A stretch of DNA of 62,067 nt, counting the filler, from Thermodesulfobacteriota bacterium (lineage in GTDB: Bacteria > DASVDK01): the NCBI GenBank assembly GCA_036381125.1. It is 5 parts of 5 records of this genome, joined end to end, with 100 filler letters (N's around TTAATTAATTAA, not from the genome) between each part and the next. Parts side by side here need not be neighbours in the genome. Positions count along the whole stretch, not along the records: positions 1 to 25,451 come from DASVDK010000053.1; 4 more parts are not named here. One strand, given 5' to 3'. The notes beneath the pieces are model-generated. The model saw only the letters and a list, made by a program, of their open reading frames with translations. It did no database searches and had not been told where the DNA came from. Below, in pieces: positions 8,638 to 24,041 of the stretch (position 1 is its first letter; every line of letters starts with the position of its first letter). A program made the translations under genes and the position numbers.

Positions 8638-9897
8638 CTAGTGGTGCCCGCCCTGCCCCTTGAGGTCGAGGTAGTCCCGCTGGGAGACCATGGGGTAGCG
8701 GCTGGCGAACCAGAAGACGCTCAGCAGGAAGAGCCCGAGGAAGCCGAGCGTCACGCCGATCTCGGTGAGGCCGAAGACGAAGGGCGCGAACTGCACCTGG
8801 GCGGCCGCTCCCGCGGCCGCGGCGCTCGACGTGGCGGCGCTTGCCGCGTGCGCCGCGCCGGCCTCGCCGCCGGCGGCGTGCTTGAGGACCGACGGGTAGA
8901 CGCCGAAGAACCGCTCGAGCCACAGGCCCGTCAGCACCAGGACGGCGAAGATCGAGAGCGTCACCGGGTTCTTCTTCGTCGCGCGGGTGAGGAGCCCGCA
9001 GAACGGGATGAACCAGACGAGGAACGCGGTCGCGACCGTGACCGGCCGCCAGGGGCCGGTGACCCGCTCGTAGAGCCAGGAGGTCTCCTCCGGCAGGTTC
9101 CCGTACCAGATGACGAGGAGCTGGGCGAAGTTGATGTACGCCCAGAAGATGCTGAAGGCGAAGAGGAGCTTGCCGAGGTCGTGCCAGGTGGGCCACGAGA
9201 CGTGGGACCGCACGCCGAAGCGAACCCCGACGGCCGCCGTGAGGAGGATCGTCCAGGCGATCGCGTTGAGGAGCGGCCCCCAGAACACGATCACCGGGAA
9301 CATGGTGCTGTACCAGTGCGGGTCGAGGGACATGAGGAGGTCCCACGCGAGGATCGACATGCCGATCGCGTACGCGAGGCAGAAGACGACCGACAGGCGC
9401 GAGAGCCGGTCGCGGCGGCGCTCGAGGTCGGCGGCGCTCGGATGCGCCCCCGGCAGGTCGGGCGCGAGGACGGTGCGCATGTAGGCCCAGGAGAGGCCGA
9501 CCAGGACGACCGCGACGACGATGTCGCGCACCCGCATGAACGGTAGGTTCAGCCAGGCCGCCTTGAGCGGGATCGGGTGCTCGATCCACGGGTAGAGGTG
9601 ATGCACCCCGAAGGCGAGCAGGAGCACGAGCAGGACGAACCCGATCGGCTGGAAGGCGCTGAACGCCTCGTGCACCCGCAGCACCGGCCCGCCCCACCGC
9701 GCGCCGACGATCCGCTGCATGGCGGAGACGACGATCCCGCCGAGCGAGAGCCCGAAGAAGTAGACGAGGTTCACCAGGTAGGCCGACCAGGCTCGCTCGG
9801 GGTTCGCGCTCGCCGCGCCGGCGACGAAGACCACGACGCCCACGGCGACGAACGCGGCGAAGAGGTAGAGGGCCGGCTTCGGCAGACGGGCCGTCAT
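8638..9897 (-). CDS. actF: Alternative complex III subunit F (polytopic membrane)
   Basis: WDLLMSLDPHWYSTMF, HDLGKLLFAFSIFWAY..F.Q.LVIWYGNLPEE; last gene of the act operon. Confidence 0.9.
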   Translation of the reverse strand: MTARLPKPALYLFAAFVAVGVVVFVAGAASANPERAWSAYLVNLVYFFGLSLGGIVVSAMQRIVGARWGGPVLRVHEAFSAFQPIGFVLLVLLLAFGVHHLYPWIEHPIPLKAAWLNLPFMRVRDIVVAVVLVGLSWAYMRTVLAPDLPGAHPSAADLERRRDRLSRLSVVFCLAYAIGMSILAWDLLMSLDPHWYSTMFPVIVFWGPLLNAIAWTILLTAAVGVRFGVRSHVSWPTWHDLGKLLFAFSIFWAYINFAQLLVIWYGNLPEETSWLYERVTGPWRPVTVATAFLVWFIPFCGLLTRATKKNPVTLSIFAVLVLTGLWLERFFGVYPSVLKHAAGGEAGAAHAASAATSSAAAAGAAAQVQFAPFVFGLTEIGVTLGFLGLFLLSVFWFASRYPMVSQRDYLDLKGQGGHH

Positions 9898-10487
9898 GGC
9901 TTCGAGACCTCCGGCGCGACTTCGGCCTTCCGCGTCGGCGCGACAGGGTCGGCCTGCGCGGTCATGCCCTGCAGGCTCCGCACGTAGTTGACGACGTCCC
10001 ACCGCTGCTGCTCGGTCATGCGGTACCCGTAGGCGGGCATGAGCGTCGAGAGGCTCCCGAGCCGCACGGTGGCGTAGAGGTACCCGTCGGTCCGGCCCTT
10101 GATGGCCGGGCTGTCGAGCGGCGGCGGCGGCACGAACCGCGGCGAGACGGGGCCGTCCCCCTTGCCCGACACGCCGTGGCAGGGCACGCAGAACACGTCG
10201 TACACCGCCTTGCCCCGCTCGACCGACGCCTGCGTCATCGGGACCGGGTTCTTGAGCCGCTCGGAGGCGACCATGTGCGGCAGGGCCGGCGGGTCGGGGT
10301 TCACCGGCACGCTCCCGGCCGGCGCGTCGTACGCCACCTCCTGCGGGTGGACCGAGGGCTGCAGGTACATGTCGCTCGACCAGGGGACGTTGAAGGGGCT
10401 GCTCGAGCCGACCTTCTCCTGGCAGCCCGCGAGCATCAGGGCCGCGGCGAGGGCAGCCACGGAGACGACCACGGCGTCCCTAGGCAT
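9894..10487 (-). CDS. actE: ACIII monoheme cytochrome c lipoprotein
   Basis: Lipobox LAGC, DMYLQPS, single CVPCH, MPAYG. Confidence 0.88.
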   Translation of the reverse strand: MPRDAVVVSVAALAAALMLAGCQEKVGSSSPFNVPWSSDMYLQPSVHPQEVAYDAPAGSVPVNPDPPALPHMVASERLKNPVPMTQASVERGKAVYDVFCVPCHGVSGKGDGPVSPRFVPPPPLDSPAIKGRTDGYLYATVRLGSLSTLMPAYGYRMTEQQRWDVVNYVRSLQGMTAQADPVAPTRKAEVAPEVSKP

Positions 10488-10983
10488 GGCGGACCTCCGG
10501 AGCGCCGGCCTTCTCCAGGATCTCCCGCGCGGCGGCCGCCCGGTCGGGGCTGCAGCGAACGAAGACGCCCAGCCTGTCGTTCGAGAAGGCGGGGTCGTAG
10601 GTCGTCTCGAACGCGAGCCGTGGCAGGCGCGCCGTGATGAACAGGCCGAGCACCGTGGCGAGCGAGCCGAAGAGGACGGCCACCTCGAAGGCCAGCACGG
10701 TGTACGGGATCATGTGGACCAGCGGCTTGCCCCCGACGACGAGCGGGTAGGCGATGGAGGCGTACGACGCGAGGCCGTATCCGGTGAGCGCGCCGAGGAC
10801 GCCGCCCGCGATCGTGTAGAGCCGCACCGGGCTCTCCCTCGGCTCGAGCGCCTCCTCGAGCTCGTGGCGCGGGACCGGGCTGTAGACGGTCAGGTCGGTG
10901 AACCCGGCCTTGCGGAGCTGGCGGATCGCCGTGGTCGTCGCGTCGAGGTAGGGGAAGATCCCCAGGACGCCTTGCTGCGCCAT
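10480..10983 (-). CDS. actD: ACIII subunit D (DUF3341)
   Basis: MAQQGVLGIF..VYSPVP..YPLVVGGKP..FEVAVLF. Confidence 0.88.
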   Translation of the reverse strand: MAQQGVLGIFPYLDATTTAIRQLRKAGFTDLTVYSPVPRHELEEALEPRESPVRLYTIAGGVLGALTGYGLASYASIAYPLVVGGKPLVHMIPYTVLAFEVAVLFGSLATVLGLFITARLPRLAFETTYDPAFSNDRLGVFVRCSPDRAAAAREILEKAGAPEVRHA

Positions 10984-12383
10984 CAGTGCCCCCCTCCCGC
11001 GGCCGTCCGCTCCTTCATCGGCGGCGGCAGCACCTCCTTCACCTCGGTGAGCGACACCCAGGGAAGGAACTTGATGAAGAGCAGGAAGAACATCCCGAAC
11101 CAGGCGAAGCTGCCGACCAGGATGGCCAGCTCGGTCGGGCTGATGACGTACTGCGTCCGCGAGCCGAAGGCGAACGGGACGAAGTCGTGCCCGAGCGAGA
11201 GCACGATGATGACGTAGCGCTCGAACCACATGCCGATGTTGATGACGATCGAGATGAGGAAGAGGAACGGGATGTTCCGGCGCAGCGGCTTGAACCAGAG
11301 GGTGAGCTGGGGGATGAACACGTTGCAGGTCAGCATGGTCCAGGCGCCGACGGCGTAGTCGCCGGTGAGCCGGAACCAGAACTGCCCCCGCTCGAACGGG
11401 TTGCCGCTGTACCAGGCGGTGAAGAACTCGACCGCGTACGAGAAGGCGACGATCGTGCCGGTGAAGAGGCAGAGCTTGGCCAGCGCCTCGAGGTGGTCGA
11501 CCGTGATGATCTCCTCGACCCCGAAGATCCTCCGGGCCGGGATGACCAGCGTGAGCACCATGGCGCAGCCGGAGAAGATGGCGCCGGCGACGAAGTACGG
11601 CGCGAAGATCGTCGCGTGCCACCCCGGCACGATCCCCATCGCGAAGTCCCAGGAGACGACGCTGTGCACCGAGAGGACCAGCGGCGTCGCGAAGGCCGCG
11701 AGGAACATGTAGGCCCGGCTGTAGTGGTGCCACTCCCGGTTGCTCCCCCGCCAGCCGATGGCGAGGATGCCGTAGAGGCGCCGCCGCCAGCCGGTCGACG
11801 CGTCGCGCGCGGCCGCGATGTCCGGGATCAGGCCGATCACGAAGAAGATCGCCGACACGGTGAAGTAGGTCGAGACGGCGAACACGTCCCACACGAGCGG
11901 CGACTTGAAGTTCGGCCAGACGTGGCCCTGGCTCGGGTACGGCAGGAGCCAGTAGGCCACCCACGGCCGCCCGACGTGGATCAGCGGGAAGAGCCCGGCC
12001 GTCATGACGGCGAAGACGGTCATCGCCTCGGCGACCCGGTAGACCGACGTGCGCCACCGAGCGCGGAAGAGGTAGAGGATCGCCGAGATCAGCGTGCCCG
12101 AGTGGGCGATACCGACCCAGAAGACGAAGGTCGTGATGTAGGTCGCCCACATGACGGGCGGCGCGTAGCCGGCGACGCCGAGGCCGGTCATGAGCTGGTT
12201 CGCGAACGCGATGACGCCCACCGCGAGGATCGCGAGGTCGATCAGGAAGAGGATGTACCAGCCGCGGCCGGGCGCCTTGATAGCCTGGAGAACGGTCTCG
12301 TTGACCGCCCGGTAGGACAGCCGCGACATCGTCTCGAACGTGGTCGTCTTGGGGGGCGGCGTCCCGATGGTCGTCGTAGCCAT
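10983..12383 (-). CDS. actC: ACIII quinol-binding subunit C (NrfD/PsrC family)
   Basis: FVFWVGIAHSGTLISAIL, AEAMT, HVGRPW, SPLVWDVFAVSTY, PLVLSVHSVVSWDFA. Confidence 0.93.
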   Translation of the reverse strand: MATTTIGTPPPKTTTFETMSRLSYRAVNETVLQAIKAPGRGWYILFLIDLAILAVGVIAFANQLMTGLGVAGYAPPVMWATYITTFVFWVGIAHSGTLISAILYLFRARWRTSVYRVAEAMTVFAVMTAGLFPLIHVGRPWVAYWLLPYPSQGHVWPNFKSPLVWDVFAVSTYFTVSAIFFVIGLIPDIAAARDASTGWRRRLYGILAIGWRGSNREWHHYSRAYMFLAAFATPLVLSVHSVVSWDFAMGIVPGWHATIFAPYFVAGAIFSGCAMVLTLVIPARRIFGVEEIITVDHLEALAKLCLFTGTIVAFSYAVEFFTAWYSGNPFERGQFWFRLTGDYAVGAWTMLTCNVFIPQLTLWFKPLRRNIPFLFLISIVINIGMWFERYVIIVLSLGHDFVPFAFGSRTQYVISPTELAILVGSFAWFGMFFLLFIKFLPWVSLTEVKEVLPPPMKERTAAGGGH

Positions 12384-12404
12384 GTGGGTCCTCTACCCTC
12401 TCGC

Positions 12405-15503
<3,099 letters not shown>

Positions 15504-15621
15504 ATCCCCCGTCCGACCGATGTCCGTTCCGGCGCGGCGAAGCCGCGCCCCCACTCGACCGGGGCTCCACCCCGGACCCCGCCCACCGGTGATCGGACGA
15601 GGCCCCCCGGTGCTCGGGCTC

Positions 15622-16146
15622 TCAGTAGTGACACGTCAGGCAATCGACGCTCGCCTTCTTGTTCAGCTCGTTCTCCCCATTGTGGCAGTTGATGCACCAG
15701 TTCATGGACAGCGAGCTGTACTGGTAGACGACGTCCATCTGCTCGACCGGGCCGTGGCACGTCTGGCAGGTGAAGCCGGCCTTCACGTGGCGCTTGTGGT
15801 TGAACTTCACGTGCTCCGGCAGGAAGTGGACCCGCACCCACGGGATCGGCCGCTTCTCGTTCCAGTACTTCTGGAGCTTCTGCACCTCCGGCAACTGGGC
15901 GCCGGCGATCTTGTGGCACCCCATGCACACTTCCACGGGCGGCACGTCGATCCAGGACGACTGCTCGGCGGTGTAATGACAGTACTGGCACTGGATCTGG
16001 TACTGCCCGGCGTGGATCCGGTGGCTGTACGCGATGGGCTGCGTGGGCCCTTCGGGCGGGCCCCAGATGGCGCCGGTGAGGAAGACGGCGAGGACGATCA
16101 CCGGGATGGCGACGGCCAGACCCACGCCTACACGCTGTCGTGTCAT
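15622..16146 (-). CDS. actA: ACIII pentaheme cytochrome c
   Basis: N-terminal TM helix and five CxxCH motifs (CQYCH, CMGCH, CQTCH, CINCH, CLTCH). Confidence 0.93.
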   Translation of the reverse strand: MTRQRVGVGLAVAIPVIVLAVFLTGAIWGPPEGPTQPIAYSHRIHAGQYQIQCQYCHYTAEQSSWIDVPPVEVCMGCHKIAGAQLPEVQKLQKYWNEKRPIPWVRVHFLPEHVKFNHKRHVKAGFTCQTCHGPVEQMDVVYQYSSLSMNWCINCHNGENELNKKASVDCLTCHY

Positions 16147-16459
16147 CTCGATCCCTGAGAGTCCAGTTCCGGAGGAGTCGAACGTCTTCGGAGCGCCTCG
16201 TAAGGCCCCCGCGACGCACCGGAGGCACCGGGGTGCTCAGGGGCGGTCGCCGTGCGGGCCCCCTTAGCACGGGGTCCCGTTCGGCCGCCCGGCCCGGAGC
16301 TTGTGCAACAATACACGAAGTTTGGCGCCCATGCCACAGGTAAAACAACCGGCTACAGGGTCTCCGGTGCGGCACGCACGCCATCTACCGTCCGCGCCTC
16401 GGTTTTTTCGTCTCGGACCGGGTCGGCCGGCCTCGCGAGTCCGGTCCGCGGCACGCCGC

Positions 16460-17344
16460 TCACCGTCTCGGTCCCGCGTAGCCGGACATGTCGGCCAGCT
16501 CGGCGAGGCCGAGGACCCCCTCGATCCGCCGGCCGCCGACAACCCAGGTGGGATAGCGCCGGACGTTGGCCCGCGCGCAGGTCTCCGGCCGCGCCCCCTC
16601 TCCCCTCGGGTCGCACTCCACGTACGGCAGCAGCGTCGCGGCAGGCCCGAACCGGGCCTTTTGCTCGGTGCAGGCCGGTCACCAGTAGGCGCCGTACATG
16701 ACCGCCCCCTCGGCGGCGAGGTGGCGCGCGAGGCCCTCCTGGAACGCCGTGGCGGGACGGCCGATCTCCACGTCGAAGAGGAGCCACGCACCGACGATCA
16801 CGACGGCGCCGGTGACGGCCGCGGTCCTGACGAGGGCGGCCCGATCGGGCAGCGTCGGCCCGCGAGGCGCGGCCGCCGGCCGCCGCATCCAGACCGCGGC
16901 GAAGAGCGCGACGGTCAGGAGCCCCGAGAGGAGGCACCAGCCGCACAGCGCGCGGACGACGACGACCTCCAGCCAGGTGAGGTAGAGGGAGAACGCCAGC
17001 CCGGCCGCCGTCAGCACGAAGAGCCGCCGCCACCGCCGCACGTCGATCGGGCCCGCGGCGAGCCAGAGGACGGCGGCGTAGTAGCCGACGCCCCAGAGCG
17101 CCGTCGGCAGGCCGAGGAAGGTGCCGTAACGGCTCGCCTGGACGACGTCGCAGCCGCCGCCCGCCTCGCAGAAGGCGGGCGTGGCGCCGAGCAGCCGGGA
17201 GGCGGCCAGGTATCCCGACAGCACGAGTCCTGCCGCGGCGAGCGCCGCGACGAGGAGGTCGCGCCGCGCGGGAACGGCCGCACCGGCCGCGGGCTTCCCG
17301 GCGGCGCCCACTGTCTTCGGGGCTGTTCGACGACGTCTGCTCAT
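16460..17344 (-). CDS. VKOR-thioredoxin-like fusion, candidate selenoprotein (in-frame TGA at codon 222, 16679-16681; 294 aa with read-through)
   Basis: VKOR loop CEAGGGC, S..G..LG.P and CGWC; then MYGAYW[TGA]PACTEQKARFG..LPYVECDPRG..C..VRRYPTW..GV..L.ELA.MSGY, continuing in frame to a stop at 16460-16462. Confidence 0.88.
16641..16664 (-). promoter_or_regulatory. Putative bacterial SECIS hairpin
   Basis: mRNA sense GC-AAA-AGGCCCG-GUU-CGGGCCU-GC: perfect 7-bp stem, G-initiated loop 26 nt after the UGA. Confidence 0.65.
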
Positions 17345-17455
17345 GTGTCCGTTCTCGCGCTCGTCCCGGGTCCGCGCACTGTACAGCCCGCGCGGCCCGA
17401 CGGCAACCGCGACGTGCGTGATGTCGCGGCGCGCCGAACGCGCTATAAGGCGACC

Positions 17456-18790
<1,335 letters not shown>

Positions 18791-23016: not shown

Positions 23017-24041
<1,025 letters not shown>

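Follow-up and report, generated by a model that had tools for sequence, protein, structure and literature searches.

The closest described relatives of the gene treated here are fusions of a membrane VKOR domain with a thioredoxin (Trx)-like domain. In the Synechococcus enzyme, according to the excerpted text of PMC3800646, electrons pass from the substrate to Cys209-Cys212, then through Cys50/Cys56 and Cys130-Cys133 to quinone. The hallmarks of the VKOR family given in excerpts of PMC4555120 are four conserved cysteines (a loop pair and a membrane CxxC) and a conserved Ser/Thr. Here we describe a VKOR-Trx gene with an in-frame TGA, located on the minus strand at 16460..17344 of a 62,067-nt stretch of DNA from a Thermodesulfobacteriota bacterium (assembly GCA_036381125.1; five parts joined with filler, the whole being called the window). 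The gene very probably encodes, as a single product, a five-helix membrane VKOR with an outward-facing Trx-like domain, in which UGA codon 222 is read as selenocysteine (Sec) under the guidance of a hairpin in the coding sequence.

The window protein resembles the Synechococcus VKOR-Trx (3KP9, 4NV2, 4NV5, 4NV6; 3KP8) in that six redox positions and an extra Cys pair align. The differences lie in the Trx-like domain, where UGA (Sec) stands in place of Cys209 and Pro-Ala in place of Pro-His, and where the codons for KARFGP hold a hairpin of the selenocysteine insertion sequence (SECIS) type while Synechococcus reads KELFGA. Arabidopsis LTO1/AtVKOR, compared by description only, is of the same fusion type and catalyzes disulfide formation (PMC3800646, excerpts), but is a eukaryotic, all-Cys enzyme of the thylakoid. 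The E. coli DsbA-DsbB system is a functional analogue, consisting of a CPHC Trx-fold oxidant that is reoxidized by a four-helix membrane protein, which passes the electrons to quinone (PMC4555120, excerpts). The Cys forms of the window's VKOR-Trx family also read CPHC, like E. coli DsbA; however, DsbA and DsbB are two separate proteins, DsbB has another fold, and no selenium is involved. Among selenoproteins, the UxxC Trx-fold families in the excerpted Table 1 of a 2026 review include DsbA-like form 1 (PF01323), DsbG-like (NF041057) and thiol:disulfide interchange protein (PF13098), in which Sec likewise replaces the first Cys of CxxC and Cys homologs exist (PMC13188914). These are soluble, single-domain proteins of other families, whereas the window protein is fused to its own quinone-linked reoxidase.

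In the excerpts, the same 2026 review of prokaryotic selenoprotein families contains no Sec-VKOR and has no mention of vitamin K, VKOR, epoxide or PF07884 (PMC13188914), the deep-Sep paper (PMC12013277) and a 2022 review (PMC9312934) mention none of vitamin K, VKOR and epoxide, and a VKOR phylogeny paper (PMC4555120) does not mention selenocysteine. A full-text literature search, with survey supplements and subscription journals outside its scope and its sources present in part, gave no Sec-VKOR among the matches listed. The window gene apparently encodes a Sec variant of a known VKOR-Trx enzyme, widespread in soil bacteria and uncatalogued.

The gene forms a single minus-strand frame (17344..16460) starting from ATG at 17344. 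The original prediction, made from the DNA sequence by itself, held that the VKOR open reading frame (ORF) only appears to stop at MYGAYW-TGA (16679-16681, codon 222) and runs on for 72 undamaged codons. The frame is confirmed: after ...AVMYGAYW-TGA it reads PACTEQKARFGPAATLLPYVECDPRGEGARPETCARANVRRYPTWVVGGRRIEGVLGLAELADMSGYAGPRR, 72 codons, and ends with a second TGA at 16460-16462. The cysteines that had been called intact (CEAGGGC, CGWC and the second pair of the Trx domain) are all present, the full set in the read-through protein being C59/C65 (FCEAGGGC), C134/C137 (CGWC), C225, C244 and C256. Truncation by standard gene callers, also foreseen, is seen in the public records, which consist of P0126 (221 aa, NCBI, ending at W221) and the orphan P0124 (the 53-residue tail ORF). 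A table-11 ORF listing splits the gene in the same manner, into one ORF ending ...AVMYGAYW and a 53-residue GTG ORF beginning MECDPRGEG. Up to W221, P0126 and the Logan record P0127 are identical to the window product, and both end there. The parts of the gene are as follows.

16460..17344, minus strand: whole VKOR-Trx gene, 294 residues including the putative Sec222 (frame, Pfam VKOR, full-length structure alignment, AlphaFold2 (AF2)/Foldseek)
16889..17254, minus strand: VKOR domain, residues 31-152 (PF07884)
17168-17170 and 17150-17152, minus strand: loop cysteines C59 and C65, respectively (aligned with Cys50/Cys56 of Synechococcus VKOR)
16934-16945, minus strand: quinone-side CGWC motif, C134..C137 (aligned with Cys130/Cys133)
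16766..16843, minus strand: fifth transmembrane helix, residues 168-193, joining the VKOR core to the outward-facing Trx-like domain (AF2 helix H168-193; arrangement by homology with 3kp9)
16475..16747, minus strand: Trx-like domain, residues ~200-290, spanning the TGA (3kp8 match, Foldseek)
16670..16681, minus strand: U-P-A-C redox motif, with the presumed Sec codon TGA at 16679-16681 and C225 at 16670-16672 (aligned with Cys209-Pro-His-Cys212)
16643..16659, minus strand: putative bacterial SECIS hairpin, inside codons K229-P234 (fold and conservation)
16577..16615, minus strand: second Cys pair of the Trx-like domain, C244 (16613-16615) and C256 (16577-16579) (near-invariant columns in alignment A1)

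Written with C for U, the read-through protein (P0001) matches the Synechococcus fusion (3kp9, 4nv2, 4nv5, 4nv6) over residues 29-290 (E=3.5e-41, phmmer) and its isolated Trx-like domain (3kp8) over residues 203-290 (E=3.9e-24). In the alignment U222-P-A-C225 stands opposite Cys209-Pro-His-Cys212, with the TGA at the first Cys of MYGAYWCPHC, in agreement with the prediction of a VKOR-Trx fusion whose attacking CxxC cysteine is replaced by TGA; C244 and C256 align with two further cysteines of the Synechococcus Trx-like domain. The Pfam VKOR family (PF07884) matches residues 31-152 with 86.1 bits (cut-off 27.5; 3e-24), covering positions 2-134 of the 134 in the profile. C59, C65, C134 and C137 are invariant in alignment A1, and S71 is nearly so. 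The AF2 model, built with 13 sequences (mean pLDDT 82.3), places a Trx fold after five long helices and puts residue 222 at the N-terminal end of helix 223-231. Its top Foldseek matches in the PDB are the Synechococcus VKOR entries (TMt 0.77-0.79, 35-36% identity), and 3kp8 gives TMt 0.90. Because the TGA lies inside the Trx-like domain, a truncated 221-aa product would be without most of the Trx fold. Pfam finds VKOR only in the whole protein and no match to DsbA (PF01323), the Trx tail alone matches no Pfam family at E <= 0.01, and no NCBIfam model reaches its cut-off for the protein (best, the VKOR model, 51.8 bits against 120). The protein belongs to the VKOR family and is by type a VKOR-Trx fusion, with UxxC instead of CxxC; functionally it may resemble a DsbA joined to its own oxidase, yet it stands outside the DsbA family PF01323.

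The TGA recurs at the same codon in many homologs. JGI metagenome contigs were scanned with the peptide patterns VMYGAYW and TP[AL]FCEAG, and the best 80 of 224 relatives (34-58% identical) were analyzed; the codon after ...YGAYW is TGA in 38 of them, TGC in 29 and TGT in 13. Across all 82 records at the codon-222 column there are 40 TGA and 42 TGC/TGT, and nothing else. Each of the 35 TGA records that reach the gene end (33 metagenome loci, L002 and the window) has an open tail of 69-76 codons that includes PYVECD and YPTW, and the remaining five are open to the contig end. L002, from genome G002 of Candidatus Rokuibacteriota, is a TGA form. In its phylum, tallied over 251 species genomes including two unpublished ones (G036 and G078), 87 match P0001 at E <= 1e-20, and 46 near-full-length rows carry one TGA. 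Inspection of 15 of these 46 flagged rows placed the TGA at the codon-222 position in 14, the other (G131) reading TGC. TAG stops in five genome matches were set aside, being ordinary Cys forms with the TAG upstream of the start. Three further proteins 76% identical to the window protein (P0003, P0122 and P0123; two NCBI records and one Logan record), known from protein records alone, also end at W221.

The tail beyond the TGA is under constraint comparable to that of the rest of the gene. Pairwise dN/dS (NG86) among 15 diverse Sec forms, with 96 of 105 pairs valid and the others saturated, has a median of 0.33 for the part of the tail that follows the hairpin codons and 0.35 for the 190 upstream codons. 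Nearly saturated dS and strong codon bias make these values rough, yet the tail shows no more relaxation than the VKOR domain does. The question raised by the original prediction, whether TGA and TGY alternate at this column with conserved coding downstream, is therefore answered in the affirmative by the counts and ratios above. A quick maximum-likelihood tree, covering 32 Sec and 39 Cys rows (71 in total), omits 11 of the 82 records, nine with the contig ending inside the tail and two (L077, L092) with fewer than 150 residues upstream. It has at least four Sec/Cys state changes, two of them forced by well-supported branches, and places Sec forms on several deep branches more than 1 substitution per site apart.

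Downstream of the TGA, the window sequence can fold into the hairpin A-GGCCCG-GUU-CGGGCC-U (16659..16643), with a 6-7 bp stem, a GUU loop, a UGA-to-loop distance of 26 nt and an energy of -13.0 kcal/mol (20-mer). The bacterial SECIS (bSECIS) model, in the excerpted text of PMC13188914, specifies an apical loop of 3-9 nt, an upper stem of 4-16 bp, 16-37 nt from UGA to loop and a minimum free energy <= -7.5 kcal/mol; the first two positions of the loop include a G, and the next base is mostly G or U. The window hairpin lies within all four of these limits as excerpted, and its loop has G first, then U. The hairpin is found in 39 of the 40 TGA records (mean -11.8 kcal/mol), compared with a mean of -3.5 for the 42 TGY records. 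In 35 distinct 48-mers of TGA forms, all 210 cells of the six core pairs are paired, and third codon positions depart from the consensus in 1 of 175 cells inside the hairpin compared with 129 of 315 in the flanks of the same sequences. The Gly codon in the hairpin is GGG in 35/35 Sec forms against 4/29 Cys forms, and the Ala codon is GCC in 34/35 against 5/24. Since these synonymous sites are frozen only in the TGA forms, the conservation acts on the RNA and not on the protein. The window carries the exact consensus hairpin. The peptide KARFGP seems to be imposed by this hairpin, Cys forms having KALFGD at the same place. A scan of the window at Rfam gathering thresholds gave 0 matches, and no curated RNA family lies over the hairpin.

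A separate observation concerns the TGA form L094 (L094:913-987), which is 36% identical, sits on the longest branch of the tree and is without the family hairpin. It has another stem-loop nearer the UGA (AGCAGA-AGGA-UCUGUU), which may point to a second type of SECIS or to an independent origin.

Machinery for Sec insertion is present in both reference genomes. G002 encodes SelA (512 bits), SelB and tRNA-Sec (69.7 bits, the gathering score being 47) together on one contig. G001, the nearest relative of the window, has SelA, SelB, tRNA-Sec (71.7 bits) and SelD. The SelD genes of G001 (L018) and G002 (L103) each contain one in-frame TGA, the frame of L018 reading ...ACAG-stop-ASK..., so that at least one further selenoprotein is already made in this lineage. 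A strong SelA match is present in 43 of the 46 flagged genomes. SelA is over the cut-off in 222/251 genomes of the phylum of G002, and being near-universal there, its co-occurrence is useless as a discriminator. Global reassignment of TGA was rejected, as TGA is an ordinary stop in window genes, ending four of the five Pfam-supported ones, the VKOR-Trx gene included.

In DsbA chemistry, attack takes place at the first residue of the motif, which also serves as the leaving group. Sec at position 222 (the equivalent of Cys209) would be inserted by SelB and tRNA-Sec, guided by the in-coding hairpin 26 nt downstream. Judging by homology, the oxidized Sec222-Cys225 selenenylsulfide would take electrons from the cysteine pairs of exported proteins, and these would then pass via C59/C65 and C134/C137 to the membrane quinone; both the direction of electron flow and the substrate class are presumed from the described enzymes. 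A selenolate should attack and leave faster than a thiolate and should need no neighboring His to lower its pKa, which would account for why U goes strictly with Pro-Ala and C with Pro-His. Sec may thus speed thiol/selenol exchange, and the change from His to Ala in the motif may be an adaptation that goes with it. Consistent with such coupling, CPHC is present in 39 of the 42 TGY records, while His occurs at the motif position in none of 54 Sec-form records.

Several points weigh against reading codon 222 as Sec. The TGA of the window is seen in assembled contigs and not in raw reads, and contig pieces from three runs of other studies (X2, X3 and X5) do not cover 16679-16681. We infer the actual insertion of Sec at codon 222, and the Sec machinery of the window organism is deduced from that of G001, a tblastn search of the 62-kb window with the SelA, SelB and SelD of G001 having found no sel gene. 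Three of the 46 flagged genomes are without a strong SelA match, although these are metagenome-assembled genomes and this may reflect incompleteness. The 80 metagenome loci were picked by likeness to a Sec-form query, so that 38/80 may overstate the Sec share. As for the hairpin, it has no compensatory changes and only five one-sided, G-U-compatible ones, a lack of covariation that follows from how little the helix varies. The shuffle control on its pairing is uninformative, the 71-nt fold is ordinary for GC-rich DNA (z = -1.39, with 19/200 shuffles folding as well), and an alternative pairing competes with it in the 75-nt fold of the window. Finally, the nearest relative (L001, genome G001) has TGT at codon 222, a single base separating the two states.

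The explanation that best survives next to Sec insertion, though with a small chance of being correct, is that the UGA is decoded otherwise, either by a near-cognate Trp or Cys tRNA or as a selenium-dependent terminator yielding mostly the 221-residue VKOR core. A UGA followed by C is a leaky termination context, and every TGA form reads TGACC. However, Trp cannot stand in for a redox Cys, all 42 non-TGA records read TGC or TGT, and the SECIS-type hairpin with its frozen synonymous sites goes with TGA only. The full Sec machinery of G002 and G001 also speaks against other decoding, and because the Trx fold begins before the TGA, termination there would cost most of the fold.

A second explanation, with a chance still slightly smaller, is a fresh TGT-to-TGA nonsense mutation in the window lineage, leaving a new pseudogene or a truncated VKOR without the Trx domain. 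Its attraction is that the closest homolog (L001, protein P0125, 91% aa identical to the window protein) has TGT, from which a single base change is enough, and that 9 of the 72 tail residues are different in P0125, slightly above the gene-wide 9%. Yet the three 76%-identical proteins P0003, P0122 and P0123 also end at W221, and the Sec forms on several deep branches make TGA the older state and L001 the convert. L001 retains CPAC and an RFGP hairpin relic, while the window has the exact consensus hairpin. None of the refuting outcomes named by the original prediction was found in full. One of them, all close homologs with Cys together with a relaxed tail, was found in part: the nearest relative is indeed a Cys form (TGT), but the tail is not relaxed and deeper relatives have TGA. 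A single-base assembly or sequencing error at the TGA, for which low coverage (word depth ~7) and the use of contigs only could be cited, has a negligible chance, since a separately built Logan contig is identical over 16300-17500, P0126 and P0127 also stop at W221, and 38 other metagenome contigs have this TGA too.

That Logan contig (1620 nt, run X1) spans 16300-17500 with 0 differences. X1 is probably the source sample, so the contig represents an independent assembly and not an independent sample. The recurrence of the TGA with an open, conserved tail across homologs makes a single-base error irrelevant as an explanation. With respect to expression, no RNA run was listed with window sequence among 22 runs.

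The Sec reading of codon 222 would mean a switch between Sec and Cys at short range. G001 and the window share 95.8% nucleotide identity over 4985 nt of neighboring genes and 91.6% over the VKOR region. L001 (L001:1054-1100) is a Cys form with the Sec-type CPAC and a shifted hairpin relic, GGGCC-GGUUCG-GGCCC (-11.7 kcal/mol), and a Sec ancestor with a recent Sec-to-Cys conversion looks like the simplest history of its line. Further converts may be L078 (CPAC) and G131/L122 (CSAC).

With regard to sampling, G001 (Thermodesulfobacteriota in NCBI) is the sole genome of its order and phylum in a collection of 199,900 species, so the lineage from which the window comes may be one with very sparse sampling.

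Taken jointly, a broader set of statements is somewhat favored by these results: oxidative folding would be selenium-dependent in a large share of a soil phylum (Candidatus Rokuibacteriota) and in the sparsely sampled lineage of the window, about half of their VKOR-Trx proteins would have Sec at the substrate-contacting residue, the family would be uncatalogued, the hairpin would dictate KARFGP, and Sec and Cys would be swapped between genomes ~92-96% identical. If so, the window and G001 form a natural experiment on the benefit of Sec to a disulfide oxidase. For Dsb/VKOR biochemistry, Sec and Cys forms would be available as natural pairs, as close as near-species level, in which a His-to-Ala change in the xx dipeptide is coupled to the exchange; with them, the dependence of oxidase power on leaving-group pKa and exchange kinetics could be tested. 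The selenoproteome would gain a membrane enzyme that generates disulfides and is linked to quinone. For annotation, a whole enzyme class would be misdescribed in many soil genomes as a 221-residue VKOR and an orphan 53-residue ORF, and for gene finding the hairpin would offer a clean case of an RNA signal constraining a protein sequence.

A candidate tRNA elsewhere in the window was rejected. The 92-nt 'tRNA-Ala (cgc)' called by ARAGORN at 23571-23662 (plus strand), its sole call in the window, has no Rfam match and is apparently coding (NVSSPNTPGLRDLQ); it is most likely a false positive and not tRNA-Sec. The peptide at 23571-23662 contains what we take to be a dihydroorotate-dehydrogenase-like motif.

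The genes on either side of the VKOR-Trx gene are as follows.

9894-10487, minus strand: cytochrome c (Pfam)
10983-12383, minus strand: NrfD-type membrane subunit (Pfam)
12405-15554, minus strand: molybdopterin/4Fe-4S subunit (Pfam)
15622-16146, minus strand: cytochrome c7-type protein (Pfam)
17456-18790, plus strand: myo-inositol-1-phosphate synthase, divergent neighbor (PF07994, 312.7 bits; PF01658, 112.5 bits)

The minus-strand genes at 9894-16146, directly downstream of the VKOR-Trx gene, look like Alternative Complex III genes, a name taken from their Pfam set. The adjacency is common to the window and L001, and an ActB-like neighbor is found inside the flanks of 1 of 81 other loci (L097). 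A functional link between VKOR-Trx and the Alternative Complex III genes was rejected on account of this single occurrence. The VKOR and cytochrome c7 genes are separated by a 313-nt spacer (16147-16459), which lies inside an unbroken alignment with L001 at 91.6% identity.

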